A DNA stretch of 64,000 nt from a virus. Lineage: Duplodnaviria > Heunggongvirae > Uroviricota > Caudoviricetes. The notes under the pieces are model-generated. The model had not been told where the DNA came from and searched no databases. It saw only the letters and a program-made list of their open reading frames with translations. The stretch is from positions 172,098-236,097 of IMG/VR virus record IMGVR_UViG_3300037400_006466. One strand, written 5' to 3'. The position numbers were made by a program, and so were the translations under genes. Of this stretch, positions 29,169 to 54,640 are shown in pieces (the stretch's first letter is position 1; the number at the start of each line of letters is the position of its first letter).

Positions 29169-29355
29169 TCTTTGATATGCATTCCCTGCTGAAAGTCAGC
29201 TCTTTTCTTATATCATCAAATCTTATGATGAATGACTTCCCGTCATCACTTCTATAAACAATCTTACCTATCTTTCCAAGAGGTTCAGGAAGCTCCTTGT
29301 ACTTCCTGTCCTTTGGATTCCTTATTATCTTCACCTTGTCTCCAGGTCTTATCAT
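29155..29355 (-). CDS. small KOW/SH3-like protein
   Basis: ORF. The GDKVKII...GKIGKIV pattern suggests this fold. Confidence 0.45.
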   Translation of the reverse strand: MIRPGDKVKIIRNPKDRKYKELPEPLGKIGKIVYRSDDGKSFIIRFDDIRKELTFSRECISKIEEA

Positions 29356-30320
29356 CAGATTCCCTTTTCCTTTCTGTATCTGAATATGCTTCTTGCCAAA
29401 GGGTCAGTCTCATCTTTACTTTCCCAATAAGACGCCCTTTTGTCAAAGTACTCCTTCTCAAGGTCAGGATTCAGCTCCACTCCGAACGGGTCAGGGTCCT
29501 CGAACTCAAGATTGTCCCATTGGACTCCGAAGGACTCAGCTGAGTTCTCCTCCTTGTAGTACTGACCTTTGGAATGGTCACTCAAGCTACAATCAGCAGG
29601 AAGTGGGACCCAGTAGTCAAGAAGCTCAGGAACCTTCCTCTCCTCAACGTGCTTGATATGGGCGAGAACATCCTTAAGCTCATCCTTGTGGATATAGTAG
29701 TCTATACTGTCATGGATCTCATTCCATACCCTTGACTTATATCCCTTGGATATGAGCCAATCCTCTATCTCCCTCATGGCCCTTCCCCTTATGCAGGCCT
29801 CGAAGTTCTGTGCCAGATAGTTCTTGGCTATGTTCTCAAGGTTCTTCAACTCACCTGAATAGAACTTGTTATCATAGGCTCCCCTCAACCTCAGCTCAAT
29901 GAGATTTCTGGTTGACCCGAAGACAGACCTGCAATATCCGTGTTTGGCGGCATAGTCCACCTCTCTGTCACATCTTGTGAGAAGTCCAGGATATCCATCA
30001 AAGAATCCCTTTCTCATTCTTGATGCGGCGGCCACATACCTCTGATGCTCATCTGTAAAAGTCTTGTATTTGGCTCTGACTTCCTCAAGCTCAGGTTCAC
30101 AATGGTTGTCCTCAATGTACTGGTCAACATCATTTATGTTCCAGTATATCTCAAGGGAATACTGTGACAGGATGCTGGCACTTCCTCCGAAAATCAAAGA
30201 GAAGTTCTCAGCCTTGGCGATTTGTCTGAACTTCTTGTAATCACCATATCCTTTCTGTTTCTTGAACTCATTGAGGGTTATTTCCCTGTGTTCTGTTCTT
30301 CTTGTTATCTTACAGGGCAT
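29355..30320 (-). CDS. family A DNA polymerase, C-terminal fragment (fingers O-helix motif B and palm motif C)
   Basis: FRQIAKAENFSLIFGGSA matches motif B (RRxAKxxNFGxxYG). VWNEIHDSI matches motif C (HDE). There is no motif A or exonuclease here; those are in 34367..36496. Confidence 0.8.
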   Translation of the reverse strand: MPCKITRRTEHREITLNEFKKQKGYGDYKKFRQIAKAENFSLIFGGSASILSQYSLEIYWNINDVDQYIEDNHCEPELEEVRAKYKTFTDEHQRYVAAASRMRKGFFDGYPGLLTRCDREVDYAAKHGYCRSVFGSTRNLIELRLRGAYDNKFYSGELKNLENIAKNYLAQNFEACIRGRAMREIEDWLISKGYKSRVWNEIHDSIDYYIHKDELKDVLAHIKHVEERKVPELLDYWVPLPADCSLSDHSKGQYYKEENSAESFGVQWDNLEFEDPDPFGVELNPDLEKEYFDKRASYWESKDETDPLARSIFRYRKEKGI

Positions 30321-34366: not shown

Positions 34367-36496
34367 TCATCCCACTATCAGTGTATCATCTTCCCTAAGG
34401 TCAACTGCGAACTTCTCACCATGATCTGTCATGACTGTCTGACCACCCAAGAACTCATAGGTCTGTCCGTCCTGCTCCACCGTGATTATGTCTATGTCAA
34501 CTTCCTTTCCCACATAGAAGGTGTTGTAGGCAGTGTTGCTGTGAAGGTCAACTCCTGCTCCCTCCTGGAGAATCTTGACAAGGGGGTCATTCACATCTCT
34601 TATGTCTATGGCGGCAATTCTCATCTGCAGACTTGAATAGTCCACAGTACAGAGGTAATAGTTCTCATCATCCGGGGTCTTGAGACAGCTTTTTATCTCC
34701 TTTGCGAACTTTCCTCTTGTAGGGACCTGCTGCATATTGGGGGAGTTGCATCTGCTTCTTCCAGAATCTGTCATCATCGCAAGGAAATTGGGGTGCATTC
34801 TCCATGTTCCGTCCTCTTTGTGATACTGGATATACTGTGTCCATCCCTTGTCCCCTTCCTCATCATTCTCTCCGAGGAACTCAGCCATGAGTGAGTTCTT
34901 GGTATCCTCTCCGACAAAGGTGTTGAGAAGTGTGTTGAAGGACTTGAGCTGTTCAAGGACTGCGGCCTCAGGATGAGTCTTCTTCCATCTTGATATCTGG
35001 AAGTCTCCTGTGGCCAACTCCCCTGTGGAAGTCCTACCCCAGTCCTCCCATCCTTTCTTCTCAAGAAGCTTTCCCAACTTCTGTCCTGATTCCCACTGGA
35101 AGTCCATGGGGACACCGAAAGAGATTCCCAGCTTCTTCTTAAGCTCGTTGATGGCCTCCTTCATCTGGTTCCTGACATCATTCAGCATTCCCTTGTCAAT
35201 GAACACACCCAGATACTCCATCTTGGCGTAAGTCCTTGCAGCAGGTACACGGAAAGTCCTGTAATAGTACTCGAATCCATGGTCACTGAATTCATTGGGA
35301 TATTTGCTGTCCAGTTCCCTGCAATGGTCAAGTATGTTGTCCCACACCCTTCTGGTGACTATGGCATCCATGATTGCATAATCTTTGAGAGTATCCTCAG
35401 GAATCTCAAGGTAATTTATCTCATCCCTTTTCTTTCCCAGCTTCTCCTTATACTGGTCAAGAGGTCTCTCATACCCTCCGAACTCGCTGTAAAGGAAAGC
35501 CAAGGCCTTCAAGGAGTTGGAGCGGGTCTCATCAAGGGTATGACCCATGAGGATTATATCCTCATCTATCTGAGCCTCAGGTATTCCGTTACGCCAAAGG
35601 AACTTCACATCGAACTTGAGGTTGGCACCGAGCTGTCTGTTGTTCTTCAGTATGGACCCCAGCTTTCTCTTGTTATCCTTATCCATCAGTCTCCAAGGGA
35701 TGTAATATCCTGTAATTCCGTCAAAGCTCAGGGTTATGCATCCTATGGTGTCCTTGATGAAGTTGAGTCCTGATGTCTCCAAGTCCCATGCCAGCACCTC
35801 GTCATGTCTGTCCTTGTTGGGCTCATAGAACAGAGTGTCGAACTCCTCTGCATTCCTTATGAATATCTTGTTCAGCTTGGGGAATCTGGGAGGTATGAAG
35901 GGATTCCCCTTGATGGCATTGCTTATCTGCAATGAGGCCAACTTGGTCTTATATGAATCAACTGCACCGGTGCACCACTTTCCGTATCCACTGAATCCGA
36001 AGATGTCATCCCTTATGGACGCCATGGGGAACACCCTATGGCAGTTGTCCCTTGTGAGGTCAGGGGTGAACCAGAAATTGGACTTACCGAAAAGTATCTG
36101 CTCCATATGGTTGGGATAGAGGTCATCTTCTTGAAGGAGTCCGTAGAGGGCAGGTCCGCTTGTGAGGATAGGAGCAAACTGAGGGATATGATCCATGAAC
36201 TTTGACCTGTTGTTCTTGTAGAACTTGATGAGTCCTTCCTTGGCCTCCTTCTCATTCCACTCACAGGAAAGGACATTGAGTATCATGTATTTGGTGCATC
36301 CGTTTGACGCAAGCCATTTATCTATGTATCCCAGGTATCTGGGCTCGAACTGGTCCTCCACCAGTATTATCAGAGGAAGGTCATATTTGGCCTTGTTCTG
36401 AGATTTATCCAAGAGAACAGGGTTGTCATGAACCTTGAGATTGAGCGCCTGCTTCCTTGAATTGGCGCTGATATTACCGAAGCTGAAATCACTCAT
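34367..36496 (-). CDS. family A DNA polymerase, N-terminal fragment (3'-5' exonuclease and palm motif A); ends before motif B
   Basis: LAWDLETSGL matches Exo I. RMHPNF...TDSGRSRCNSPNMQQVP matches the conserved PolA block. CTVDYSSLQMRIAA matches motif A (DYSQIELR). It then reads QEGAGVDLHSNTAYNTF, followed by a 40-aa tail and a stop. Confidence 0.85.
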   Translation of the reverse strand: MSDFSFGNISANSRKQALNLKVHDNPVLLDKSQNKAKYDLPLIILVEDQFEPRYLGYIDKWLASNGCTKYMILNVLSCEWNEKEAKEGLIKFYKNNRSKFMDHIPQFAPILTSGPALYGLLQEDDLYPNHMEQILFGKSNFWFTPDLTRDNCHRVFPMASIRDDIFGFSGYGKWCTGAVDSYKTKLASLQISNAIKGNPFIPPRFPKLNKIFIRNAEEFDTLFYEPNKDRHDEVLAWDLETSGLNFIKDTIGCITLSFDGITGYYIPWRLMDKDNKRKLGSILKNNRQLGANLKFDVKFLWRNGIPEAQIDEDIILMGHTLDETRSNSLKALAFLYSEFGGYERPLDQYKEKLGKKRDEINYLEIPEDTLKDYAIMDAIVTRRVWDNILDHCRELDSKYPNEFSDHGFEYYYRTFRVPAARTYAKMEYLGVFIDKGMLNDVRNQMKEAINELKKKLGISFGVPMDFQWESGQKLGKLLEKKGWEDWGRTSTGELATGDFQISRWKKTHPEAAVLEQLKSFNTLLNTFVGEDTKNSLMAEFLGENDEEGDKGWTQYIQYHKEDGTWRMHPNFLAMMTDSGRSRCNSPNMQQVPTRGKFAKEIKSCLKTPDDENYYLCTVDYSSLQMRIAAIDIRDVNDPLVKILQEGAGVDLHSNTAYNTFYVGKEVDIDIITVEQDGQTYEFLGGQTVMTDHGEKFAVDLREDDTLIVG

Positions 36497-39720: not shown

Positions 39721-42700
39721 ATGGATACTAAAGATAAATTTGTTACACTCGAAGGGGCAGGATTACTCTATAATAGTGTAAAAGACGACATAGAAGATTT
39801 AAATGATTCTCTTTCTGCTCTTGACGACCGCAAAATAGGATTTGCCACTGTTGATGGAGAAGAGCTGGTTTTGAAATCATCAGCTAATTCGGAAACGGAA
39901 ATTGCCAGACTTTCAGGCTTTGGTGGTGGTGGAGGTGGTGGACCTTCCTATATGTTCAGAGTTACCAATACCACTGGGTTCTTGGATACTACCAGAAAAG
40001 AGGGAAGTGAAATTGTTCTGTCATTCAACTGGTCCTCAAAGTATGATAATCAGAATACTGGTGATGGTGAGGTCAACGTAACCTTTAAGAACTTGCCAAA
40101 CGAGAAAATAAGACAATCAATATCTCAAACTGATGCTGGCGGTAATGTCTCTATTGATGTATCCAAATACATGAGACTCGGCCGTAATGACGTGACTGTA
40201 TCTGTTATTGATTCCTATTATCAGAAAAGAGAGCTTAACTTCTCTATTAATATTGTATCTCTGGAAATAAGTTCAAATTTTGTAGATACTGTTGTATACC
40301 CTATAGACAGTTCTAATAGTGTGCTTTTCCCGTACTCTATGAGTTATTCAGGAGAAAAGATAGTTCACTTTATATTGGATGGTACTGAGATAGCTACAAG
40401 ATCAATAACAACAACCTCAGAAGTTACTGAAACACTTACAGGATTGACTCATGGTGCTCATGAACTTGAAGTCTACTATACTGCTGTTATAAATGATGTC
40501 CCTGTCAATTCAAAAAACACTCTCAGATACAGTATTATGTATGCTGTCAGTGGAAATACTACTCCAATCATATCTTGTCCGTTTGATGATACCACTGTTA
40601 CACAATATGATAATGTGTCTATTCCTTATATGGTATATACCAACGGCCAAGAAACAAGTCATGTGTCTTTGTACATAAAAGGAACTGATTCAGAAACATT
40701 TACCTTAATCAATGAGCTGGATGTCAGATTAGCCAGACAGATTTGGACCTATAGAGCAGAAACACCAGGATCATTTACTTTTAGAATAGAGTCAGGAACT
40801 GTCTATAAAGAATTTACAATAACTGTTAGAAAAAGTGATATAGAAATTTCTCCTCACGAAGGTAATTTGATGCTGCATCTGAACCCATATCAGAGAGACA
40901 ACAGCAATGAAGAGACCAGAGGCACTTGGACCCAAGTGTGGGATCAAGGACAATGGGTAGCTACCAATGTTAATCCAGTATTCACTGGGTTCAACTGGAA
41001 GTCTGATGGTTGGATAAAAGATAGCAATAACATAGATGTATTAAGACTCCACTCTTTAGCAAAGGTTGAAATACCTTTTGATCCTTTTGACCCTGACAAT
41101 GCTACTGCTATTCCAACAAATGGAATGACCATTGAACTGGAATTTGCAACATCCAGTGTCATGAACTATAATTCTCCTGTGATTTCTTGTATGTATGAGG
41201 GTGTTGGCTTTGAGGTCACTTCTCAAGAAGCTAGACTCAGTGGTGCTGGTGAAAGCATAGGAACACAATTTAAGGAAGACGAGCATGTCAGAATCTCTTT
41301 TGTAATAACAAGACAAAACCCTGAACATATGATATACATTTATATCAATGGTGTTTTATCAGGTGCTAAAAGATATTCTGGTAACTTTGCACATCTTCAG
41401 TCATCTAAAATAACACTGGGATCTCAATTCAGTACTCTGGATTTATATCATATACGTATATATAATGTTTCTCTGAGTCACAAAGATATAGTTGACAACT
41501 GGATTGCTGATATGCAAGACAGTGAACAGATGATGACTGAATACTTTAATAAACTTATATATGATGATTCTGGAGAAGTATCATTAGCAAATATTTCAGA
41601 TCTTCCAATTGGATTACCATATCTGGTCTTAGAGACTGGGAGGCTTTCTGAATCAAAGAAAGACAAGGTGTCCACAGATGGATATTATGTAAATCCAAAA
41701 GACAGTTCAAGAAACTTTACATTTAAGAATGCTGTACTTTCTGTCCAGGGTACATCATCTGCTGACTATCCTAGAAAAAACTATAAGCTCAAATTTGAAA
41801 ACGGACTCACCATGAATGATGGTGAACATAAGAGTAAATATGCATTGAGAGAGGGGTCTATACCTGTAAAGACCTTTTGTTTCAAAGCTGACTATGCTTC
41901 TTCAGAAGGAGCAAACAACGTTGAGCTTGTAAGATACTATTGTGATATATGTCCAGTGAAGACTCCCCCTCAGACATATGATGAAAATGATACAGATGAA
42001 GAGAAGGCAGCAAAAGACAAAATACGTCAAGGTATTGATGGATTCCCAATAGTTGTTTTCTGGGATGATAAGGTGGAGGAGCCAAATCATAAGTTAAAGT
42101 TCCTTGGAAAATATAATTTCAACAATGATAAGGGAACCTCAGAAGTCTATGGTTTTTATGCAGATGATAATGTACATGACCAGTCTTGGGAAACAAAAAA
42201 CAACGACACTAACAAGGCACTGTGGAAGGATGACAACTATACAGATTATGATTCATGGAAAAATGCCTTTGAATCCAGATTCCCAGATTATGGTGATGAA
42301 GAAGGAACAAAAGCTGATATCTCAGGTTTAAAAGCTCTTGCTTCATGGATAAAATCAACTGACACAAATAACATAATTGATTCTGTATTTAATCAAGAAA
42401 CAGGAGAGACTACATACAGTGATACAGGTAGGCCAATATGGGCTGTTGGTGATAGTGAAGTAGTAGATGGTAAAACCATCTGGCATGGTGCGCCATTATC
42501 TCCAGCTGTTGAGATTAATGGCGTAGAATATGAAGAAGATAATGAGGAATATAGACTTGCCAAGTTCAAATCACAGATAGAGGATTACTTCGATCTTGAA
42601 GATACTCTTTTCTATTATCTTTTCACTGAAGTGTTCTTGATGGTTGACTCAAGAGTAAAGAATTCATTCCCTACCAGATATGATTCTCATCCAGGTGCAA

Positions 42701-45700
42701 AATGGATGTGGCTACCATACGATATGGATACTGCTATAGGAATCAACAATGAAGGTCAACTTGCATTCCATTATTCTCTAGAAGATATTGACTGGGTAAA
42801 TGAAAATAGCGCAATGGTCTATAATGGTCAGCATTCTGCTTTATGGCTAAATGTCAGAAAGTGTTTCTTTAATGAAATAAAGCAAATGTATCATGACCTT
42901 AGAACTGGAGATAGAAAACTCTCTTATGAAGAAATAGAGAAGAGATTTGAAGACCACCAGAAAATGTGGCCTGCCTCTATTTATAATGAAGATGCTTATC
43001 AAAAGTATATAGTGCCAGTAGTCTATGAAGGGGAAGATGAAGAATACCTCGAAATGTGTCTTGGATCAAAGGCTGAACAGAGAAAATGGTGGCTATATAA
43101 CAGATTCAAGTATCTTGATTCAAAGTATGAGGTTGGAGATTCTGCTACCAAGAAAATAACATTCAGAGCCTATCAGCCAGGATCATTCACCTTGACTCCT
43201 TATTCAGATGTTTATCTTAAAATTGAGGCATCTCATATTGGTTCAGATCTTGTAAGAGGTCAAAAAGGAATTGCTTCTCCAGTACCTATTTCTTTTGGAT
43301 CAGCAAATGATTCTGTAGTTAACATATATTCAGCAGACCTTCTCATGGATATTGGAGACCTTTCTCAACTTAGACCAGGATTCTGTTCCATATCAGATGC
43401 AGTTAAACTTCAGCGTTTAAAAATAGGTGGAGAAACCAGAAACACTCTATTCAATTCACTTACTCTTGGAAACAACACTTTGTTGACATACATAGATGTA
43501 CGTAACTGTCCGAATTTAAGAGGAGTTATAAGTGCAAAAGGATGTCTCTCACTGCAGACAGCACTGTTTGAAGGTACTTCCATTACTGGTATTGAATTAC
43601 CAGATGGTGGAATTGTAAAAACCTTACATTTGCCATCTACCATAACTACACTTGAAATACTGAATCAGCCTTACATATCTGACTTCCAGATAGAATCTTA
43701 CAGCAACATAGTTGAGTTAAATCTGGAAAATGCCGGGGCTGCACAATCTAATGCTTTGGATACTTTAATGCAGTTAAAGAAAGGTGCCTTTGTCAGAATT
43801 ACTGGACTTGATTTGAGATTTGAGGGTGGAGCAGACATTAAAGCTTTTCTCAATAAGACTGCAACTCTTCGTGGAGGATATAGGAATGATGACCGCATTC
43901 TTATTACACGAGACTACCCATATCTGTCTGGAACTGCCTATATAAAAGATGCAACTCCTCAACAAGTCGAGACTCTTGAAAGTTATGGACTTACAGTCAC
44001 CTATGATCACTTTGTCATGATTGTAGAGTTCTATGATGAATTCGGACGTACAAAGCTTCAGGAGCAGAAGACTTATACAGGAAATGTGAATTACACAGGT
44101 TCACCCGTAGCAAAGGACCCAGATGCACAGTATACCTATTCTTTCGGTGGTTGGAGTAGAGTTCCTGGAGGAGATCCCGAACCTAGAATACTCAATAACA
44201 TTACAGACTCATGTAGTCTGTACATGGCCTATAACAAGCTGATAAGGTCTTATGAAATATCTTTCTACAATGAAGGCAGATTACTTGTAAGAAAGGCTGT
44301 TCCATATGGCACAATGCCCATATATGATGGAGTTACCCCAGTATATGAGGGAGTAGATCCAGATAACTACGGTGAGTTTACAGGCTGGACTCCTGAGCCC
44401 CATGAAGTAAACGGTACTGCAAATTATTTTGCTACATTCAGATATACTGGATTATATACATACAACTACTTGATGAAAGAAGCAGCTTCTGTAGAAAGTG
44501 ATAATGTTACAGGAATAGCTCAGTACGCATTTGCCAACCACAGTAAACTGAGAACTGCTACCTTTGAGGCTGTTACAAGAATTGGAAACAATGCTTTCAG
44601 TGGGTGTTCTTTATTATCAGAGCTGATAGTTCCAAACGTAGAATATATTGGAGAATATGCTCTTAATGGTACCAGAATTTATAATTTGAACTTCCCAAAG
44701 GTTAAAGAATGCTATGGAATATACACGGGTGCTGAAATACTTGATTTTGATATTCCAAATTTGGAAATACTTAGAGAATCTGGATTTAATGGTAATGGAA
44801 ATACATCAATAACGTCGATATCCTTCCCTAAATTGACAGACTTTACAGAAATATCATATGCCCCAAGTTTGGTTTCAGGATTTAAAAACTTAAGTAGTTT
44901 ACAATTGCCTGTATTAAGAAGGTTATCCGGTGCTACATTTGGAGAATCTGCGATGGATGACTTTACTGAAATCAATCTACCTTCACTTCGTACTATTAGT
45001 TATTTTAGGTCACAAAACCCGATTGAAACTGTAGATTTAGGTCCCGATTTGCAGAGATTCCCACAAGGAGGATCTTCTTATTCTAGCACATATAATAAGC
45101 TTAATAGTGAATTAAAAACATTGATTCTCAGGCCAAAGAGACTTCTGACTTTATCTCAATCAGTATCTGATAGTTACAGTCCTTTCTATTATTGCTATAA
45201 TACAGTGACAATCTATGTGGATCCCTCTCTTGTAGACCAATATAGGAATGCTACAAACTGGAGCGTGATGTCTGATAGAATCAAACCTATATATGAAATC
45301 ATTGCAGCATCTACTTTGACTGTAACTGCAAACAATGTTTCTGGAAGATATTCAACTACTACACTTCATGTTCATGCTGAAGGAAGCGGTGAATACCTGG
45401 GAGAGTTACAACCTGGAACAATGACACTTGACTTTGATTGCATATCACCAGACTTTGGTATAAACCCAACTGAAAATGACAGAACTGTTACAGTTGAATA
45501 CACATATGGTGGACAGACAGTGAATGTCAGCTTTACTCAGACTGGTTGTAAGCCAAATACCCTAGTCATAGATACTACAAGAAATATAATAAATACTTCT
45601 TCATATGTATATGAAGGAAATCTGAGTGTAATTATTAACGGAAGTTATGTTACTAAATCATCAGCACAAATCCTTACCAGAGGACTTGAAAAAGCTGAAA

Positions 45701-46209
45701 ACCAGCCTTATGATGACTTTGTAATGTATGTAAGTACTAACGGATATACAGCAGTATCTCCAGAAGAAATGGATTTGACTGGAACTAGATTGGGCTTAGA
45801 TAAAGAAATATTGATACCAACAACTATTGCTAAATTCAGATTCTTTGATATGACAAGCTATCCTACATTTAAAGCTAAAGCTTTCTATGGAAATTATGAA
45901 AATAGATATTACGATTATACCTATTCTACAAATGTTGCAAGAGAAGAATCCTTTAGTAGTTGGCCTTATTTCGGTAGCAATGTTATATCCTTGAGTAGTT
46001 CTGGAAATAAGTTAGATCCTGAAGTTCATGAAATATCTTCATTTAATACTTTTACTGAATCTGTAGATATGGATCATACATACAGTGTAAGCATAAGAGA
46101 CTGCTATGGAATAGAAAGCACAGAAGAAGTAGAAATAGATAGAGCTACATATTTCTTATTCCCAGACAGATACAATATTGAATTTAGAGAGGTTGAACCT
46201 ACAACATGA
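39721..46209 (+). CDS. giant (2162 aa) tail / host-interaction protein with a CotH-kinase-like domain and BspA-type leucine-rich repeats
   Basis: LSVQGTSSADYPRKNYKLKF and KNSFPTRYDSHPGAKWMWLPYDMDTAIG resemble CotH signature blocks. The C-terminal third carries about 22-aa leucine-rich repeats (NAFSGCSLLSELIVPNVEYIGEYALNGT...). Confidence 0.7.
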   Translation: MDTKDKFVTLEGAGLLYNSVKDDIEDLNDSLSALDDRKIGFATVDGEELVLKSSANSETEIARLSGFGGGGGGGPSYMFRVTNTTGFLDTTRKEGSEIVLSFNWSSKYDNQNTGDGEVNVTFKNLPNEKIRQSISQTDAGGNVSIDVSKYMRLGRNDVTVSVIDSYYQKRELNFSINIVSLEISSNFVDTVVYPIDSSNSVLFPYSMSYSGEKIVHFILDGTEIATRSITTTSEVTETLTGLTHGAHELEVYYTAVINDVPVNSKNTLRYSIMYAVSGNTTPIISCPFDDTTVTQYDNVSIPYMVYTNGQETSHVSLYIKGTDSETFTLINELDVRLARQIWTYRAETPGSFTFRIESGTVYKEFTITVRKSDIEISPHEGNLMLHLNPYQRDNSNEETRGTWTQVWDQGQWVATNVNPVFTGFNWKSDGWIKDSNNIDVLRLHSLAKVEIPFDPFDPDNATAIPTNGMTIELEFATSSVMNYNSPVISCMYEGVGFEVTSQEARLSGAGESIGTQFKEDEHVRISFVITRQNPEHMIYIYINGVLSGAKRYSGNFAHLQSSKITLGSQFSTLDLYHIRIYNVSLSHKDIVDNWIADMQDSEQMMTEYFNKLIYDDSGEVSLANISDLPIGLPYLVLETGRLSESKKDKVSTDGYYVNPKDSSRNFTFKNAVLSVQGTSSADYPRKNYKLKFENGLTMNDGEHKSKYALREGSIPVKTFCFKADYASSEGANNVELVRYYCDICPVKTPPQTYDENDTDEEKAAKDKIRQGIDGFPIVVFWDDKVEEPNHKLKFLGKYNFNNDKGTSEVYGFYADDNVHDQSWETKNNDTNKALWKDDNYTDYDSWKNAFESRFPDYGDEEGTKADISGLKALASWIKSTDTNNIIDSVFNQETGETTYSDTGRPIWAVGDSEVVDGKTIWHGAPLSPAVEINGVEYEEDNEEYRLAKFKSQIEDYFDLEDTLFYYLFTEVFLMVDSRVKNSFPTRYDSHPGAKWMWLPYDMDTAIGINNEGQLAFHYSLEDIDWVNENSAMVYNGQHSALWLNVRKCFFNEIKQMYHDLRTGDRKLSYEEIEKRFEDHQKMWPASIYNEDAYQKYIVPVVYEGEDEEYLEMCLGSKAEQRKWWLYNRFKYLDSKYEVGDSATKKITFRAYQPGSFTLTPYSDVYLKIEASHIGSDLVRGQKGIASPVPISFGSANDSVVNIYSADLLMDIGDLSQLRPGFCSISDAVKLQRLKIGGETRNTLFNSLTLGNNTLLTYIDVRNCPNLRGVISAKGCLSLQTALFEGTSITGIELPDGGIVKTLHLPSTITTLEILNQPYISDFQIESYSNIVELNLENAGAAQSNALDTLMQLKKGAFVRITGLDLRFEGGADIKAFLNKTATLRGGYRNDDRILITRDYPYLSGTAYIKDATPQQVETLESYGLTVTYDHFVMIVEFYDEFGRTKLQEQKTYTGNVNYTGSPVAKDPDAQYTYSFGGWSRVPGGDPEPRILNNITDSCSLYMAYNKLIRSYEISFYNEGRLLVRKAVPYGTMPIYDGVTPVYEGVDPDNYGEFTGWTPEPHEVNGTANYFATFRYTGLYTYNYLMKEAASVESDNVTGIAQYAFANHSKLRTATFEAVTRIGNNAFSGCSLLSELIVPNVEYIGEYALNGTRIYNLNFPKVKECYGIYTGAEILDFDIPNLEILRESGFNGNGNTSITSISFPKLTDFTEISYAPSLVSGFKNLSSLQLPVLRRLSGATFGESAMDDFTEINLPSLRTISYFRSQNPIETVDLGPDLQRFPQGGSSYSSTYNKLNSELKTLILRPKRLLTLSQSVSDSYSPFYYCYNTVTIYVDPSLVDQYRNATNWSVMSDRIKPIYEIIAASTLTVTANNVSGRYSTTTLHVHAEGSGEYLGELQPGTMTLDFDCISPDFGINPTENDRTVTVEYTYGGQTVNVSFTQTGCKPNTLVIDTTRNIINTSSYVYEGNLSVIINGSYVTKSSAQILTRGLEKAENQPYDDFVMYVSTNGYTAVSPEEMDLTGTRLGLDKEILIPTTIAKFRFFDMTSYPTFKAKAFYGNYENRYYDYTYSTNVAREESFSSWPYFGSNVISLSSSGNKLDPEVHEISSFNTFTESVDMDHTYSVSIRDCYGIESTEEVEIDRATYFLFPDRYNIEFREVEPTT

Positions 46210-48338: not shown

Positions 48339-48366
48339 AAGAGAGCCAATTGGCTCTCTTTTTCAT
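48339..48366 (+). terminator. rho-independent terminator of the plus-strand tail-fibre operon
   Basis: Perfect stem agagagcc / ggctctct with loop aatt, then TTTTT. Confidence 0.75.
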
Positions 48367-48521: not shown

Positions 48522-48605
48522 TGCCCAGAACGGGACTCGAACCCGTACTCCTTTACAGGAAGAAAATTTTAAGTCTTCTGCGGCTACCTATTACGCCATC
48601 TGGGC
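48522..48605 (-). tRNA. trnL: tRNA-Leu (anticodon UAA), class II with a long variable arm
   Basis: Minus-strand read: GCCCAGAtgGCGTAATAGGTAGCCGC... Anticodon stem gaaga / ttttc with loop cTTAAaa. Long variable arm. T-arm acGGGTTCGAGTCCCgt. 7-bp acceptor stem gcccaga / tctgggc. No CCA encoded. Confidence 0.75.
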
Positions 48606-48624: not shown

Positions 48625-48777
48625 CTATTCGCAACATCCCACAGTGAAGTTGGATATTCCGTTCAAATCCACATATTCATCATTAGTGCCCACACCATAA
48701 AGGTTACCTTCAACCATTGAAAGCACTTTAATCTGAATCCTGACCTTCTTTCCATCTTTAATATAAATCAGCCACAT
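48625..48777 (-). CDS. small ORF (50 aa, beta-rich) not in the track
   Basis: ATG at 48777 preceded by TAGGAGACAGAAAGTT. Fills the gap between the tRNA and the ATPase gene. Confidence 0.45.
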   Translation of the reverse strand: MWLIYIKDGKKVRIQIKVLSMVEGNLYGVGTNDEYVDLNGISNFTVGCCE

Positions 48778-48804: not shown

Positions 48805-49869
48805 TCAGCAAGCCTTCTGGAACTTGCTCTTGAGATACCACTGGAGAGACCTTGAAAGCTCCTCTCCGGTCTTGGGGTCAACATACTTGCCCTCATTGTT
48901 CTTGGGAGGCTCAACATCCCACTTGGAGTTCTTGGATGATGTGGACTTCTTTGATGCAGAGGCCTTCTTGACTATTCTTGCCTTCCTGACATTCTTGACA
49001 TCCTCTGGGTTCTCAATGACACCCTTCTGAATCTCATCAAGCTCACAAGCCGCCTCAAGCTTTCTGTAGGTGATGTTGAAGTCCTTCCAGTCCTCACCAT
49101 AGACACGCTGAGCATCCACGAACTTCTTGACAAGTCTGATGGAGTAGTTGACCTTGGCCTTTCTGAAAGCATCATGCTCCATCCATCTTCTGATGTCAGT
49201 GTTGAACAGATTGATTACATCCTGAATCTCCTCATCAGAGAGCTCATCAGTGTTGTCATTGAGGTAATCCTCAAGAAGATGGGTTGTGAAAATCATCATA
49301 TCATTGGGCTGAAGGTCAATGGACAACTGCTGAACTCTGTCAAGGAGGGCCTCCTGATGGACAGAGAGCTTCTTGTTACCGAAATCATTGTTACAGATGA
49401 TGATTCCGAATCCGTTGAACTTGAAACCTCTACCGCCATCCTCAGTCATGTAGAAGACCTTTCTGTTGGTCCTTGTATCAGACTTGGTGTCAAAGGCGGC
49501 CTTCATGAGCTCCAGACATCCCTCATCACCGAGACAATCCACATCATCAAGAAGAAGAACATAGGGTCTTCCGCTCTTGTCAGGAGTTGCAGTCTCCTTC
49601 ATGACATGATACATTGACTTGGGAGTGACATGACCAGGAACTCTGACCACACCCGCGATAACCTCATCCTCTTTGAGCTGCTCAAGGAAGGTCTCACAGA
49701 GAGTGGTCTTACCAGTACCAGCCTTACCCTGAATCATAAGACAGTTGCTGAAAAGCTTGTTGTAGTTAATAACTGAGCTCTTAATCATGCTCTTGAATCT
49801 GGAACGCCTTGAAATGACCAATGGAAGCTGAGCTCTTTCTGCTGATGTAAGTAGTGAAATGTTCTTCAT
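48805..49869 (-). CDS. P-loop NTPase (AAA-like or DnaC/IstB-like ATPase) with a basic C-terminal tail
   Basis: Walker A QGKAGTGKTT. Walker B VLLLDDVD. Strong SD AAAGGAGAAAGG. Confidence 0.65.
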   Translation of the reverse strand: MKNISLLTSAERAQLPLVISRRSRFKSMIKSSVINYNKLFSNCLMIQGKAGTGKTTLCETFLEQLKEDEVIAGVVRVPGHVTPKSMYHVMKETATPDKSGRPYVLLLDDVDCLGDEGCLELMKAAFDTKSDTRTNRKVFYMTEDGGRGFKFNGFGIIICNNDFGNKKLSVHQEALLDRVQQLSIDLQPNDMMIFTTHLLEDYLNDNTDELSDEEIQDVINLFNTDIRRWMEHDAFRKAKVNYSIRLVKKFVDAQRVYGEDWKDFNITYRKLEAACELDEIQKGVIENPEDVKNVRKARIVKKASASKKSTSSKNSKWDVEPPKNNEGKYVDPKTGEELSRSLQWYLKSKFQKAC

Positions 49870-49937
49870 AATTCCTTTCTCCTTTTAATCTCTTTTCCTT
49901 ACACTGATATACTACCATATTCAGACTTTTTTGTCAA
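49870..49937 (-). promoter_or_regulatory. sigma-A-like promoter (TTGACA-N17-TAGTAT)
   Basis: Minus-strand read: TTGACAaaaaagtctgaatatggTAGTATatcagtGTAAGGAAaag...AAAGGAGAaaggaattATG. Confidence 0.55.
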
Positions 49938-49960
49938 CACCCATACAACATTTTTTTTCA

Positions 49961-51442
49961 TCAGATAACCTTGATGATTCCCTGATTGGCCTTGAGATAC
50001 TTGTTCCACTCATCCTCACCCATAGGAGGATTGTTGACTGAATAGGAATCTGTGACCTGGATTGAATAGAGATTGACCTTCTCCTTCTTCACAAGGTCAG
50101 CCATATCTGAGAGTCCGAAGTCAAAGAAGTCAGAATAGATTACCACAGTGTCACACTTCTTCTCATTGACAAGATACTGGAGTCCAGGGAGAAGTCTTGT
50201 GCCTCCGCCAAGCTCCACACTCTCTGGAACGTGTCTGAAATCGAACTCCTCAAGCTTTCCTGTATCCCATGTGACTGCGAATGAATCAGGTGCCAGAGAA
50301 CCAGACATTGAACTGAGGGTTGAACAGGCCTTGAGGATTGACTCAGTGGACATTGACCCTGATACATCAATCAGAACACCAAGCTTGGCCTTCTTGAATC
50401 TCTGAACAGTGGACACCGCTGAATACATGATGTTGCTGTTTCCTCTTGAGCCCCTGTTGTAGTGCTTGATGTGGTTAATCTTGTAGGCTGTGGACCTCTT
50501 GATGATATTTGAGAAGAACCTTGAAATCTCCTTGCTGTTGTTGGGGACAATCTGAATCTTCCCTGTGACACCACCGATGTTTCCCACACCGAATCCTCTG
50601 TTTGAGGAAATCTCCACATAATCAACTTCCTGACCCTCATCCTCTGAATTGAGGGATTCCTCAACGCTCTTCTCAGTCTCAGGAGTCTTATCATCAGGGT
50701 TCTCATAGTTCTCTTCTCTGAGAGCCTTTCCTATTTCCTTGTCAAGGTCTGAATCCATGGGGTCAATATCACTGCTGATATCCTTCATCCCATCAGGAAC
50801 ACCTCTTCCTTCCTCATCATCAAGGAAACTGTCAATATCATCAGAGATTCCCGCTGAACCCTTTGAGCTCTTGCCGTTCCCCTTCTGCTGATTCTTGTCT
50901 GACTCACCGTTCTGATTCCCGTTTGCTCTCTGCTCTTTTCTCTCATCAATCTTGTCCTTGAGCTGAGAGATAAGAACCTCATAGTAATCTCTGAATCCAT
51001 CAAGGATTGGAACATCCATGGACTTGTGTGTGAGAATCTTGAAGTTGTTGTCATACATTGTCTTGACATTGGCCAGAGTCAGAAGCTTGGAATTGACTTC
51101 CAAATCCATGCAGATATTGAGGAAGGACATCGGGCCACCGAAGTGTCTGATACCCTTGATATAAGGAATACCATACTTCTCAAATATCCCCTTCACAGAG
51201 ACCATTTCCTGCTTGATATTGACAGAGTTGTGGTTGAAGTATACATGACCTACCTCGTGAAGAAGAACCACCTTCTTGACATCCCTGTCAATGTCTGAGG
51301 CGATGTGAATCTCATCCACAGGGGAACTCTTGTGAGTGTAACCCAACTGTCTGCTTCTGCTCCACATATTCTTGTGGTAATGGACATTGGCCATTGCCAG
51401 ATAACCCATGACCTTCTTCTGTTCTCTTGTGTAGTAGCTCAT
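49961..51442 (-). CDS. metallopeptidase-like (HExxH) plus von Willebrand factor A domain protein, of the kind that partners MoxR
   Basis: N-terminal LLHEVGHVYFNH (HExxH motif). C-terminal VLIDVSGSMSTES (VWA MIDAS DxSxS). Acidic linker between them. Confidence 0.7.
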   Translation of the reverse strand: MSYYTREQKKVMGYLAMANVHYHKNMWSRSRQLGYTHKSSPVDEIHIASDIDRDVKKVVLLHEVGHVYFNHNSVNIKQEMVSVKGIFEKYGIPYIKGIRHFGGPMSFLNICMDLEVNSKLLTLANVKTMYDNNFKILTHKSMDVPILDGFRDYYEVLISQLKDKIDERKEQRANGNQNGESDKNQQKGNGKSSKGSAGISDDIDSFLDDEEGRGVPDGMKDISSDIDPMDSDLDKEIGKALREENYENPDDKTPETEKSVEESLNSEDEGQEVDYVEISSNRGFGVGNIGGVTGKIQIVPNNSKEISRFFSNIIKRSTAYKINHIKHYNRGSRGNSNIMYSAVSTVQRFKKAKLGVLIDVSGSMSTESILKACSTLSSMSGSLAPDSFAVTWDTGKLEEFDFRHVPESVELGGGTRLLPGLQYLVNEKKCDTVVIYSDFFDFGLSDMADLVKKEKVNLYSIQVTDSYSVNNPPMGEDEWNKYLKANQGIIKVI

Positions 51443-51493
51443 GTATCTTCTCCTCTACATATATAATATACCATACATCATAACTTATGTCAA
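51443..51493 (-). promoter_or_regulatory. sigma-A-like promoter (TTGACA-N17-TATATT)
   Basis: Minus-strand read: TTGACAtaagttatgatgtatggTATATTatatatGTAGAGGAGaagatacATG. Confidence 0.55.
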
Positions 51494-51558
51494 TAGCCAT
51501 CAAAGAAAAAGGACACCAGTCAACGAAAGGTGTCCTCAAAGGAGTTAAAGAATATGAC

Positions 51559-52710
51559 TTATGAGAGCTTCTTGATAAGCGTTCTGTTAAGATAATCAAG
51601 AGTCTCACTTGCAGGATACTTGCTGACAATATCACTGAAATACTGGAGGTCAGCACTTGTGGTGTTGCTGAGGGTTGCGTTCCTCACAAGGTCATTCAGA
51701 CCCTTCAGAACATCCTCTGTGAGTCCCATTGAGAGAGCCTCATCCCTGAGGGACCTGAAGGTCTTGACTTCCCTGGATTCCTTTGCAAGGAACTCTGACT
51801 CATTGGCCATGAGGACTGTCCTGATGGCATTGCCCTCTCTTTTCTTGGACATTCCAAGAGTATCTCCCACAATCCTCATCCAGATTGGGTCATTGAATCT
51901 GCTCATGTAGGCCTCTGCGAAAATCATGGAGAACTTGAACACTCTAGGAGAAATGAATCCCAGAAGTCCACCCACTTCCACACTCTCCGTATACTCAGCC
52001 TTTCCAGGTGTGAACTCTGAGAGATTGTCTCCGACCCACTCCTTGAATCTGTTGAAATCATACTTCTTTCTGGAAGGGGCTGTGAGTCCGAGAAACTCAG
52101 GGATATCCTCATAGGAAATCTCATCAATGTCCTCCTCATCCTCAAGGAGCTCCCTGTAGGAGACATCTGTGTTAAGGAGATTGAGAATCATGAACCTGTT
52201 CACAAGAGGAGCAGTCATTTTGAAGGCATTGTTCAGGTCCTCACTGTAATTGCCCGCTGCAATGACCAGTGTGTTCTCAGGAAGTCTCTTTGTGGCCAGA
52301 ACCCTGTCAAAGACCAGTCTGAAAAGAGGCGGCTGAAGAATATCAGTGGTGGCTGAAATCTCATCAATGAACAGAACATTTCTTCTTCCGTTCTGAGCCT
52401 TGTCAGCCAGCTCATGGTACCATGACGGAGCGATTCTCTCCATTCTGTAACCTGTGACCTCATCACCTACTCTGACATCCAGTCCAAGAATATCATCCAC
52501 AGAGTATGTGGAAGGTGTGAGTGTCACAAGATTGTATCCCTTGTACTGTGTCCAGAGATTGACTGTTGAGGTCTTTCCGATTCCAGGATTACTCATGATG
52601 ATTCCTGCGACCCTCTTGGCCTTCTTTCCGTTCCTGATGGCCTCATCAGCCTGCTTATCAATGAGGTCGATGGTCTCCAAAAACTGTCCCATGTACTGAT
52701 TGGTCTTCAT
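51559..52710 (-). CDS. MoxR-like AAA+ ATPase
   Basis: Walker A GIIMSNPGIGKTS. Walker B VLFIDEISATTD. About 380 aa. Sits next to a VWA protein. Confidence 0.75.
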   Translation of the reverse strand: MKTNQYMGQFLETIDLIDKQADEAIRNGKKAKRVAGIIMSNPGIGKTSTVNLWTQYKGYNLVTLTPSTYSVDDILGLDVRVGDEVTGYRMERIAPSWYHELADKAQNGRRNVLFIDEISATTDILQPPLFRLVFDRVLATKRLPENTLVIAAGNYSEDLNNAFKMTAPLVNRFMILNLLNTDVSYRELLEDEEDIDEISYEDIPEFLGLTAPSRKKYDFNRFKEWVGDNLSEFTPGKAEYTESVEVGGLLGFISPRVFKFSMIFAEAYMSRFNDPIWMRIVGDTLGMSKKREGNAIRTVLMANESEFLAKESREVKTFRSLRDEALSMGLTEDVLKGLNDLVRNATLSNTTSADLQYFSDIVSKYPASETLDYLNRTLIKKLS

Positions 52711-52763
52711 AATCTTCTTTCTCCTTACACTGATAATATACCATATAGGGAAAAGTTTGTCAA
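52711..52763 (-). promoter_or_regulatory. sigma-A-like promoter (TTGACA-N17-TATATT) plus GTAAGGAGA
   Basis: Minus-strand read: TTGACAaacttttccctatatggTATATTatcagtGTAAGGAGaaagaagattATG. Confidence 0.55.
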
Positions 52764-52771
52764 CACCCGAT

Positions 52772-52801
52772 TAAAAAAAATCCTGCCTTTACAGCAGGAT
52801 T
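52772..52801 (-). terminator. rho-independent terminator
   Basis: Stem atcctgc / gcaggat with loop ctttaca, then a run of 8 T on the minus strand, downstream of 52821..53366. Confidence 0.6.
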
Positions 52802-52820: not shown

Positions 52821-53366
52821 TCATGCCTTGGCGGCCACAGCCTCCTTGAAGGCATCAACGATAATCTTTGCCTTCACATCATCAACTCCAATCTCCTTGA
52901 GGTATCCCTCGATTGTATCCTCTGTAACACCTACTACCTGAAGAAGATTGACGACAAGATTGACATTGACCTTTGTCTTGGCATTGAAGTCAAGGATGAA
53001 CTGCTTCAGCTCTGTGACAATGGACTCCTTGTCCTTGAGAACAGCCTGTGTGGCAATCTTGACGATGGCCTTGACTGTCTTCATGTCAGCTTCCAACTGA
53101 CATACAAAGATAACCACAGCATAAAGCGCAACATCAACCCAAACTGTAACACTTGGCCAAATTGCTGTAATGACAGGTGTGAACAGTCCAGTAATCTTGA
53201 ATCCTACTGCAGCAGCGCATGAGAGAACCGCAGAAATAAGTCTGATTTCCCAGACCTTGGCCTCGTCCTTTCTGATTTTCTTCTTGTAGAACTCCATCAG
53301 AGTACCGATTCCGAAAGATCCCAATACAACCATCAGAACCTGAATTATGATTCTTGTTACGTTCAT
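52821..53366 (-). CDS. multi-pass membrane protein (holin-like candidate)
   Basis: Three to four predicted hydrophobic helices, then a charged C-terminal tail. Confidence 0.55.
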   Translation of the reverse strand: MNVTRIIIQVLMVVLGSFGIGTLMEFYKKKIRKDEAKVWEIRLISAVLSCAAAVGFKITGLFTPVITAIWPSVTVWVDVALYAVVIFVCQLEADMKTVKAIVKIATQAVLKDKESIVTELKQFILDFNAKTKVNVNLVVNLLQVVGVTEDTIEGYLKEIGVDDVKAKIIVDAFKEAVAAKA

Positions 53367-53418
53367 TTATTTATCTCCTTATGAACATTCTTTATATTGA
53401 TTCCTTATATAATAAGTT

Positions 53419-54393
53419 TCAAAACAGAAAACCCCAAGATGCATCACTGTCTGCATCACCTATGGATATGTGGTCCAATTTCCTCTGTCCGTCCTTGACC
53501 CATTCAAGGCACCTGTTGTTGTTCATCAGAAGGTCATAGAACTCCTTCTTGGTGAACTTGGCACCTGCGGCCTGCTTATGTCCCATGACACCATGAATCC
53601 TTGTGAGGTCCAGGTCTTTGCAGGTTCTGAGTGAGAAGGATGTCCTTGACCCTCCATAGCAGATGCAATAGTCAATCTCAGGATGATTCTTCATGAGCTT
53701 TGAGCAGACCATGGATAGTCTGGACTTCTCATCTATCCTTATATATACATAGGTATGTCCGCTATTGTCCTTTCTTAACTCAAGGTCTTTCTCAACATCA
53801 GCAAGAATAAGGTTCTCTGAGTTCTCTATCATCTCGAAGCAATCAGCCTCCTCTGGAGTCCACTCCCAAGGGGCATTAAGCTTCTTGACCATATGGTCCA
53901 CAAAGGGATAAGTTCCCAATCCGGTACAGACTTTATTGAGTCTTGTGGCATCCAACCAAAGGTCTGAGGTATCCACCCATCTGTCATAGGTGTCAACAAG
54001 AGATACGAAATAATCCACCTTCTTATCCCATATCTGGCCGCATTCCACAAGCTTTTTCTTGACCACATGAATCCAGAAAAGGGCTGTGCCACAATAGTCT
54101 GTGGACCATACATTTCCAGGATACTTGTCAAGATAGAAGGAGGTCTCATGATGGTCTATGATTATAAGACTCTTGAGTACCTTTCTCCATTCAATGAAGA
54201 CATCCTCAGGTATGGACAGGTCAGTTATCATGAGCTCATTGTCAGGAGTTATAAGCTCCTTGACAGAGGACTCATTCTCAAATCCGTAGTTCTTATTGAG
54301 AATCAAATCAAATCCAAGGTAATCATGATAGAGCCTTTCAAGGACATTGACTCCAAAACCGTCAATGTCAGTATGGCTCAACAATATTCTCAT
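53419..54393 (-). CDS. DHH-DHHA1 family phosphoesterase (NrnA / GdpP-like nanoRNase or cyclic-nucleotide phosphodiesterase)
   Basis: Start set at MRILLSHTDIDGFGV (DHH motif I). IIDHHET is DHH motif III. GVMGHKQAAGAKF is the DHHA1 GGGH motif. The track's N-terminal 40 aa is discarded. Confidence 0.75.
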   Translation of the reverse strand: MRILLSHTDIDGFGVNVLERLYHDYLGFDLILNKNYGFENESSVKELITPDNELMITDLSIPEDVFIEWRKVLKSLIIIDHHETSFYLDKYPGNVWSTDYCGTALFWIHVVKKKLVECGQIWDKKVDYFVSLVDTYDRWVDTSDLWLDATRLNKVCTGLGTYPFVDHMVKKLNAPWEWTPEEADCFEMIENSENLILADVEKDLELRKDNSGHTYVYIRIDEKSRLSMVCSKLMKNHPEIDYCICYGGSRTSFSLRTCKDLDLTRIHGVMGHKQAAGAKFTKKEFYDLLMNNNRCLEWVKDGQRKLDHISIGDADSDASWGFLF

Positions 54394-54436
54394 ACATATA
54401 ATATAAAGATGTACTGAAAGGATTCGTAAAAGTATT

Positions 54437-54640
54437 TTAATAAACTGAAAGCAGGAAATCCTCACCGGACTTGGTGAGCTCAACCCATGGAGTCCCTTCA
54501 TGGTCATCATCAAGGAATATGTATCCGTGCCTTATCAGGGTGCTTCTGTCCTCAGGCTGGAGGTCATCCAACCTGGTCTCATCACCAAACAATATCCCCT
54601 TATTGGCCTTTAAATATGAAAGATACTCCAATGCTGTCAT
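54437..54640 (-). CDS. small protein (MTALEYLSYLKANKG...)
   Basis: ORF. A frameshifted paralogue lies at 55740..55911. Confidence 0.5.
   Translation of the reverse strand: MTALEYLSYLKANKGILFGDETRLDDLQPEDRSTLIRHGYIFLDDDHEGTPWVELTKSGEDFLLSVY

Follow-up and report, generated by a model that had tools for sequence, protein, structure and literature searches.

The window analysed here is a stretch of 64,000 nucleotides of tailed-phage DNA (Caudoviricetes; positions 172,098 to 236,097 of the IMG/VR record IMGVR_UViG_3300037400_006466) with a G+C content of ~40%. Its minus strand carries three open reading frames (ORFs) of 383, 493, and 354 amino acids (aa) at exactly the coordinates given by an original prediction, which was made from the sequence without database searches and saw in them a MoxR-like AAA+ ATPase, a metallopeptidase-like domain fused to a von Willebrand factor A (vWA) domain, and a further P-loop ATPase. 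The first two genes encode a known phage pair, a divergent member of the widespread families PHROG 1297 and PHROG 1314, and the assignment is secure at phage-family level. New here is a conserved three-gene form that includes a third AAA+ ATPase. The three genes and the main motifs of the second are as follows.

51559–52710, minus strand: MoxR-like AAA+ ATPase, 383 aa, with an AAA+ core at residues ~1–185 and a helical C-terminal region.
49961–51442, minus strand: peptidase-vWA protein, 493 aa, with a zincin-like domain (~1–175), an acidic disordered linker (~180–345), and a C-terminal vWA domain (~346–493) bearing a metal ion-dependent adhesion site (MIDAS), as delineated by PHROG 1314, AlphaFold2 (AF2), and Foldseek.
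51230–51259, minus strand: codons for HEVGHVYFNH (HExxHxxxxH, residues 62–71), the predicted zinc site, with invariant H62, E63, H66, and H71.
50354–50368, minus strand: codons for DVSGS (MIDAS motif DxSxS, residues 359–363); D359, S361, S363, T415, and D438 are invariant.
48805–49869, minus strand: predicted third AAA+ ATPase (354 aa) from a family not yet characterised (Pfam AAA_22, PHROG 1250); a linker rich in Lys and Ser leads to a conserved peptide at the C-terminus.

At the DNA level, blastn matched the region to no cultured phage. Since metagenomic contigs carrying homologues reach 287 kb (related loci carry L numbers below), the source is probably an uncultured jumbo phage.

Domains and motifs of the three proteins

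By its motifs, gene 1 is a predicted MoxR-type AAA+ ATPase. The anticipated signatures are present as SNPGIGKTS (Walker A), VLFIDEIS (Walker B), AAGN (sensor 1), and LVNRF, and G43, G45, K46, T47, D116, E117, N154, and R172 are invariant in nine MoxR-like sequences, making the set of AAA+ catalytic motifs complete. The window protein matches PHROG 1297 'ATPase' (5.6e-26) and, in Pfam, only the general AAA family (22.5 bits, cut-off 21.2). Nine homologues from related contigs reach more specific families: AAA_5 in seven of them, AAA_3 in three, and bpMoxR in one. The hhalign scores are 96% to phiTE 'MoxR' gp58 and 98.8% to the PA5oct ATPase, and tblastn retrieves 390 phage records at 24–31% identity, many of which their depositors annotated as MoxR or MoxR-like. 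A profile search against PDB sequences gave nothing significant. The alternative that this gene encodes a terminase or packaging ATPase was rejected, as neither Pfam nor PHROG profiles gave a terminase or nuclease match.

Gene 2 encodes two folded domains separated by a long linker. Of 47 homologues found in a search of a large protein collection, 29 were aligned, and H62, E63, H66, H71, N109, D113, N117, D359, S361, S363, T415, and D438 are invariant among them. The HExxH motif, which might have been spurious had it been absent from homologues, is therefore a fixed feature of the family, and the N-terminal domain is predicted to be a peptidase of the zincin type (HExxHxxxxH). The linker is acidic, of low complexity, ~170 residues long in the window protein, and variable in length among the homologues; it is the only variable part, and the vWA domain forms the C-terminus in all 29. 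The PHROG 1314 match (7.5e-14) covers both domains (residues 50–439). Pfam recognises the family unevenly: VWA_CoxE matches 27 of the 29 homologues, DUF2201 (PF09967) matches 19 of 29 but not the window protein, Peptidase_M78 is weakly matched by 5 of 29, and DUF2201_N (PF13203) has no match in the window protein or in the 28 homologues scanned. The best Pfam score of the window protein itself, VWA_CoxE at 17.4 bits, is below the cut-off of 26.4.

The AF2 model of gene 2 has a predicted local distance difference test (pLDDT) of ~85–93 in both domains and <50 in the linker, and its N-terminal domain is helical. Foldseek against the PDB returned the vWA domains of CLCA1, alpha2delta, ITIH1, NorD, and MDN1 (E-values of 1e-5 to 1e-3). 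Against predicted viral structures (BFVD) it returned full-length, two-domain matches that include proteins of phages PBS1, Zuri, and FBKp27 and entries named 'VWA-like domain' and 'Metallopeptidase domain protein'. The model confirms a vWA fold with an intact MIDAS, here DVSGSMS at residues 359–365, as the original prediction had read it. At the sequence level the protein is remote: tblastn against cultured phages found no match, and a search of PDB sequences found nothing significant.

Established examples of the pair are phiTE gp58/gp60, GAP32_210/211, and PA5oct gp335/gp340. The phiTE proteins are full members of the two families (gp58 of PHROG 1297; gp60 of PHROG 1314, 4.5e-113), and gp60 aligns with the window vWA protein at an hhalign score of 95%. 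With gp60 as the query, the peptidase-vWA family spans at least 431 cultured phage records, including rV5-like phages, GAP32, PA5oct, Serratia phage BF, Atu_ph07, and 72–78 kb Pseudomonas and Vibrio phages. A MoxR-like protein paired with a DUF2201_N/DUF2201 metallopeptidase-vWA protein has been described in group 2.2 jumbo phages (Iyer et al. 2021, PMC7824862), and a MoxR pair was noted in 2007 in the non-structural arm of phage 0305phi8-36 (PMC2147016). The window proteins share with these the two-gene unit, the HExxHxxxxH motif followed by N..D..N (N-x-A-x-D-x-x-x-N in both gp60 and the window protein), a charged linker, and a vWA domain with the DxSxS MIDAS motif; hhalign scores of 95–99%, profile matches to both PHROGs, and full-length structural matches support the assignment. 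They differ in being very divergent and in the additional AAA+ ATPase of their clade.

One annotation of this family needs correction. PHROG 1314 is labelled 'HNH endonuclease', which is wrong, because its full member phiTE gp60 is Pfam DUF2201_N (1.5e-22) plus DUF2201 (1.6e-9). The name has been carried into GenBank for GAP32_211, Escherichia phage slur16 (L018 3905–5260), and many more. It probably arose from homing HNH genes inserted between the MoxR and vWA genes (phiTE gp59, PA5oct gp339).

Gene 3 is predicted from its sequence to be a complete AAA+ ATPase of an uncharacterised family, which bears out the Walker A/B ATPase with a basic tail proposed before. Its motifs read GKAGTGKTT, LLLDDVD, IIICNN, ALLDRVQ, and SIRLVKKF. 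Among 28 homologues, G48, G51, G53, K54, and T55 (Walker A), D108 and D109 (a DD Walker B), N160 (sensor 1), R178, and R245 are invariant, the Arg finger and sensor 2 being intact as well; also invariant are an R76-x-x-G79-H80 loop after strand 2 and N135 and R136 on the insert preceding sensor 1. A variable basic linker, rich in Lys and Ser, leads to a conserved C-terminal peptide with the consensus INPKTGxPYS. The extreme C-terminus (48805–48900) follows a weak pattern, Q-x-x-L-[KR]-[KR]-x-[YF], in most homologues, which may resemble a degenerate clamp-binding (PIP-like) box. Homologues P0121 and P0123 lack the entire tail and still lie within a trio. The idea that the C-terminal peptide is required for partnership with the other two genes was rejected, since the tail-less form in L015 stands in a trio whose genes overlap.

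The closest profiles to gene 3 are PHROG 1250, of unknown function (3.6e-21, residues 18–263), Pfam AAA_22, the best Pfam match (34.1 bits, above the cut-off), and PHROG 168 'clamp loader' (4.6e-9). Although it shares profile matches with PHROG 1250 and with the AAA_22 and AAA_16 ATPases, its family is small and has its own C-terminal peptide: among 1.84 billion proteins, the core has 22 representatives (E≤1e-30), and at E≤1e-10 the number rises to 390. Ten second-tier relatives were scanned, nine of them in the range of 1e-13 to 1e-19; seven show at most general AAA+ Pfam families (AAA, AAA_14, AAA_16, AAA_5), and none of the ten matches a family that names a function. The AF2 model (pLDDT 85) has a generic AAA+ base-plus-lid architecture. 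Dynein modules, RFC, Rubisco activase, TRIP13, ORC, NorQ, and McrB all score alike in Foldseek, with the RFC matches level with dynein, TRIP13, ORC, NorQ, and McrB at a root-mean-square deviation of 8–13 Å, and therefore no clade can be named. STAND models match at the P-loop only (residues 42–70), profile scans gave no FtsH or propeller signal, an NCBIfam scan gave P-loop-level noise only, and a search of PDB sequences gave nothing significant. Two candidate relationships were discarded: gene 3 is not a recent paralogue of the MoxR-like ATPase, to which it is similar only from Walker A to Walker B, and phiTE gp55, upstream of the phiTE MoxR gene, is not its counterpart (hhalign 0.2%; gp55 is of HNH/HD type).

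Linkage of the three genes in related phages

Across the window and each of the 11 metagenomic loci inspected, the MoxR and vWA genes are adjacent or one inserted gene apart. The same holds in phiTE and GAP32; the two PA5oct genes are separated by three small genes and one for a homing endonuclease. The complete trio occurs in nine independent loci: the window, L003, L004, L007/8, L010, L011, L012, L015, and L016. Look-ups made from vWA homologues show the order MoxR–vWA–third ATPase in L003 (a 287-kb contig), L004 (239 kb), and L007/L008 (67 kb). Starting from third-ATPase homologues, the pair adjoins in five of five look-ups. Among these, L010 (217 kb) and L016 (183 kb) keep the usual order, L011 has one 77-aa ORF inserted, L012 reads third ATPase–120-aa ORF–MoxR–vWA, and L015 reads third ATPase–MoxR–vWA with overlapping stop and start codons. 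In addition, 13 contig sizes recur among the matches of both the vWA protein and the third ATPase, and adjacency is forced in five of these contigs, which are only 2.7–5.8 kb long. A scan of IMG/VR with the third-ATPase alignment returned at least one doubtful locus (L014); because the back-translated Walker A pattern used there is too generic, co-occurrence was established through the contig look-ups. Identity to the window proteins on the same contigs is 50–87% for the third ATPase, 41–63% for the MoxR-like ATPase, and 36–55% for the vWA protein, so that conservation is highest in the third ATPase and divergence fastest in the vWA protein.

These data bear on whether the third gene might stand outside the system, as a replication-type AAA+ ATPase (clamp-loader, initiator, or loader-like) that merely neighbours the pair, a reading we consider improbable. 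It can draw on the 'clamp loader' profile match, on RFC and ORC among the structural matches, on AAA_22 as the best Pfam family, on the weak C-terminal pattern with its possible likeness to a clamp-binding box, on the pair occurring without the third gene in L005, L009, phiTE, GAP32, and PA5oct, and on a distant relative that stands alone in Vibrio phage VAP7. Yet the adjacency recurs among unrelated flanks in all nine loci, survives the changes of gene order in L012 and L015, extends to overlap in L015, and was met in every look-up made from the third ATPase. No clamp or clamp-loader small-subunit gene was seen beside it in any locus, and the equally good Foldseek matches to dynein, TRIP13, NorQ, and McrB point to no replication clade. 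In this phage clade, the third ATPase is a genuine genetic partner of the pair, not a bystander.

The genes around the trio change from locus to locus. L004 has thymidylate synthase, dihydrofolate reductase, radical SAM, Hsp20, and glycosyltransferase genes nearby, L012 has DnaB, DnaC-like, and topoisomerase genes, and helicase genes lie near the module in L009, L011, and L015. Tail-fibre-like flanks are confined to the window and to L003, its close relative, and tail-tube-like or collar-domain genes lie within a few kb in L007 and L016. The original prediction had placed the trio inside a structural block. In the window, tail-fibre-like gene sets do lie on both sides, but the trio itself belongs to a small non-structural island that also holds a tRNA gene, a membrane protein gene, and a DHH phosphoesterase gene, and in relatives the flanks vary.

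The neighbourhood also bears on the classical role of MoxR-vWA pairs (PMC7159879), the insertion of metal cofactors, by which the pair would mature a phage or host metalloenzyme as NorQ/NorD, CoxD/CoxE, CbbQ/CbbO, and CobS/CobT do. We regard this as very improbable here. NorD and NorQ are among the structural matches, and radical-SAM genes lie 3–5 kb from the module in L004 (3130–3945), L009 (3374–4573), and L011 (1–930). However, the conserved HExxHxxxxH peptidase-like domain has no place in such a pathway, and no metalloenzyme gene accompanies the module with any consistency. Large phages commonly carry radical-SAM genes, which are not near the module in the window, L003, L007, L010, L012, or L016; their proximity elsewhere is probably a coincidence in large phages of anaerobes. 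More broadly, the cellular pairs RavA–ViaA, NorQ–NorD, CbbQ–CbbO, CoxD–CoxE, CobS–CobT, and BchI–BchD resemble the window pair in combining an AAA+ ring with a MIDAS-vWA adaptor and a flexible charged linker. Unlike the window protein, none of them has a fused zincin domain, and their metalloenzymes or complexes are not linked to the module.

Promoters and surroundings of the module

The predicted control elements of the trio, together with a small ORF downstream of it, are listed below in the direction of transcription.

52779–52801, minus strand: terminator-like hairpin and T-run (9-bp stem with 4 GC pairs, then TTTTTT), closing the upstream gene at 52821–53366 before the MoxR promoter.
52723–52763, minus strand: predicted MoxR promoter and leader, TTGACA-N17-TATATT with an extended -10, then TGTAAGG (11/12, with TG; exact match to the composite motif).
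51506–51535, minus strand: terminator-like hairpin after the MoxR stop codon (GGACACC, 11-nt loop, GGTGTCC, then TTTTT), read from the sequence.
51453–51493, minus strand: predicted peptidase-vWA promoter and leader (11/12, with TG; composite match with 2 mismatches).
49897–49937, minus strand: predicted third-ATPase promoter and leader (10/12, with TG; exact match to the composite motif).
48625–48777, minus strand: 50-aa ORF downstream of the third-ATPase gene, ~78% identical by eye to L003 12731–12883 and below the ORF-listing cut-off.

The hairpin at 51506–51535 has a loop longer than the terminator scan allows and is hence absent from the scan list. The 50-aa ORF may be a co-transcribed fourth gene, although its membership in the module is uncertain.

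The expectation that each gene has its own consensus promoter holds: TTGACA-N17-TAtatT with an extended -10 precedes each of the three. A longer composite motif, TTGACA-N14-TGnTAnnnT-N5-TGTAAGG, occurs in ten copies in the window (3494–52763) against 0.05 expected, and the minus strand carries every one of them. The trio accounts for three copies, one before each gene, and the other seven lie at 3–34 kb, a stretch whose recognisable genes encode a DNA polymerase and three DNA methyltransferases, with no structural matches. No copy precedes the tail-fibre-like genes of the window. Ten other genes at 4–25 kb, four of them directly downstream of motif copies, gave no Pfam match. In L003, whose proteins are 55–87% identical to those of the window, 21.5 kb contain only three copies, and these precede the same three genes; the motif is not present in the more distant L004. 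The composite motif seems to mark out one class of transcripts in this phage, and its sigma-70-like form suggests that host RNA polymerase probably transcribes the trio together with non-structural genes in a non-late programme. Separately, a TATATATAG-like box was considered as a late promoter of structural genes. It is visible before some genes but not significantly enriched, and it is not relied on here.

Further features surround the module. A tRNA-Leu gene (anticodon TAA; 48522–48605, minus strand) lies just downstream of the trio, and a bidirectional terminator-like hairpin (48339–48360) separates it from a convergent block of tail-fibre genes. In that region, a plus-strand gene (39721–46209) encodes a 2162-aa protein with segments that, by eye, look like CotH-like and BspA-type leucine-rich-repeat sequences. 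Upstream of the module, 52821–54513 (minus strand) encodes a multi-pass membrane-like protein of 181 aa and a phosphoesterase of the DHH family (PHROG 4771, 2.6e-15); L003 has genes of 181 and 326 aa at the equivalent positions, a positional match only. The DNA polymerase gene is apparently split into ORFs at 29355–30320 and 34367–36496 (both minus strand), with ~4 kb of other genes between them and matches to consecutive parts of PHROG 17 (profile positions 657–1050 and 1057–1241). At 5227–7471 (minus strand), three ORFs stand in tandem; the first and third match the DNA methyltransferase family PHROG 67 (2.7e-58 and 2e-67), and the middle one (5952–6707) resembles a methyltransferase paralogue by eye.

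Candidate functions of the module

We tentatively favour, at somewhat less than an even chance, the reading of the trio as a non-structural module with which an uncultured jumbo phage remodels and clips proteins at the expense of ATP. Characterised MoxR-vWA systems work by peptide capture at the MIDAS of the vWA protein, with a flexible charged linker through which the ATPase remodels the client (PMC7159879). By analogy, the MoxR-like ATPase would form a ring, the vWA MIDAS would capture an acidic peptide of the client, and ATP hydrolysis would remodel the captured client, which the tethered zinc peptidase would then cut. The third ATPase could supply or position the client, or could itself be the regulated platform. 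The module would act in the infected cytoplasm, not as part of the tail, and its client may come from the host or may be a phage protein in need of maturation. The non-structural reading is preferred because the neighbours vary between loci, the promoter class is shared with non-structural genes, and the promoters are kept in L003. Within this scheme, the third ATPase may be more likely to sit on nucleic acid than to thread a polypeptide, because its putative pore loops carry Arg/His and Asn-Arg but no aromatic residue and its tail is rich in Lys and Ser; this is the weakest inference of the analysis.

Several observations weigh against the preferred reading. Not every locus has the trio: in L005/L006 and L009 the pair stands by itself, and in the cultured phages phiTE, GAP32, and PA5oct no third ATPase lies near the pair. 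The role given to the third ATPase has pore-loop composition as its sole basis, and promoter timing is read from the DNA only. The window proteins barely reach Pfam thresholds, as the AAA, VWA_CoxE, and DUF2201_N results above make plain, and a literature search found no experiment on a tailed-phage member of the pair. Tail-fibre-like genes flank the module in the window and L003. The ATPase homologue of PA5oct (EST35_0335) is flagged by electrospray ionisation tandem mass spectrometry (ESI-MS/MS) in virion preparations. Finally, the only experimentally studied viral pair, p618/p892 from Acidianus two-tailed virus (ATV), acts in tail development (PMC4124505).

The last three observations favour a role in virion assembly or maturation, in which the pair would act as a chaperone-protease that folds or assembles tail or head components while the peptidase processes structural proteins. 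Exactly this was proposed for the same architecture, as virion assembly with proteolytic processing and with reference to ATV p618/p892 (PMC7824862, section 3.4.5). The original prediction had likewise considered a virion maturation or ejection machine. We find this possible and do not favour it, holding it to be doubtful but a live rival on account of the ATV precedent, the local tail-gene context, and the PA5oct flag. The tail-tube-like or collar-domain genes near the module in L007 and L016 add to that context. Elsewhere the context is not conserved, with nucleotide-metabolism and glycosyltransferase genes in L004, DnaB, DnaC, and topoisomerase genes in L012, and helicases in L009, L011, and L015. 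The promoter class does not precede the tail-fibre genes, and its other copies lie in the stretch with recognisable non-structural genes. As a chaperone need not adjoin the genes of its clients, these points weaken this explanation rather than eliminate it. The mass-spectrometric flag is itself ambiguous: the vWA partner in PA5oct (EST35_0340) does not carry it, the PA5oct virion list also holds the ESI-MS/MS-flagged RNase H, and the PA5oct paper itself counts seven 'virion-unrelated enzymes', so that contamination by abundant enzymes is possible. In GAP32, the pair is not annotated as virion protein, unlike the three genes before it.

The ATV precedent is close in some respects and distant in others. 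It is a viral MoxR-vWA pair and the only one with experimental data: p618 interacts with the vWA protein p892, with stimulation of ATPase activity, and with proteins of the virion (PMC4124505). In structure, p892 can be aligned with the window protein over the vWA domain only (ORF892; Foldseek against BFVD, rank 21, 180 columns). In contrast to the window module, p892 lacks a peptidase domain, the virions of this archaeal spindle virus contain p618 as a major component, and no third ATPase has been described.

A different rival places the module in the conflict between phage and host. It would be a counter-defence or host-takeover protease, with the vWA domain capturing a host protein, such as a defence factor, and the peptidase destroying it, or a MoxR-vWA ternary conflict system serving superinfection exclusion; we consider either form unlikely. 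The ternary organisation with a third NTPase recalls the iSTAND and FtsH systems among the conflict systems described by Kaur et al. (2020, PMC7159879), which combine a MoxR-vWA core with one conserved third component, an NTPase of the AAA+/STAND kind in two of their types. There, too, the vWA component diverges faster than the ATPase. The sigma-70-like promoters of the window trio would further suggest expression from the start of infection. The differences are substantial, however. The third protein here is an intact single AAA+ module, not an inactive STAND or double FtsH module, the peptidase lies N-terminal of the vWA domain, and neither variable effector domains nor effector-associated domain (EAD) adaptors are present: the vWA domain is C-terminal and the architecture constant in all 29 homologues. 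No VMAP, iSTAND, FtsH, or beta-propeller partner was found, and PADLOC returned no family for the MoxR-like and vWA proteins and only P-loop-level matches for the third ATPase. The described systems belong to multicellular bacteria, whereas this module is phage-encoded and part of a conserved gene set of a phage clade, not of a patchy accessory island. The faster divergence of the vWA protein would be equally expected of a less constrained adaptor. The conflict-system interpretation put forward for the locus at first is accordingly not upheld.

A further reading can be formulated, which we put forward as speculation with a low probability. The trio could be a split phage ATP-dependent protease with programmable capture, in which the third ATPase would engage a nucleic-acid-bound or folded target, the vWA domain would grip it, the MoxR-like ATPase would pull, and the zincin would cut, with early removal of host proteins as the outcome. 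Its targets, if this were true, would be defence factors or DNA-bound roadblocks, cleared from the cell or from replicating phage DNA. The arrangement can be likened to eukaryotic SPRTN–p97, which is unrelated.

Pairs of a MoxR ATPase and a peptidase-vWA protein span hundreds of cultured phages, and for the members from tailed phages a function has so far only been proposed. Correcting the 'HNH endonuclease' name of PHROG 1314 is worthwhile, given its spread through GenBank records. The varying gene context and the promoter class provide cheap arguments against assuming a virion-assembly role for such pairs. That the pair is here locked to a third conserved AAA+ ATPase suggests a dedicated partner or a client platform, and if the three genes work together, their mutants should phenocopy one another.

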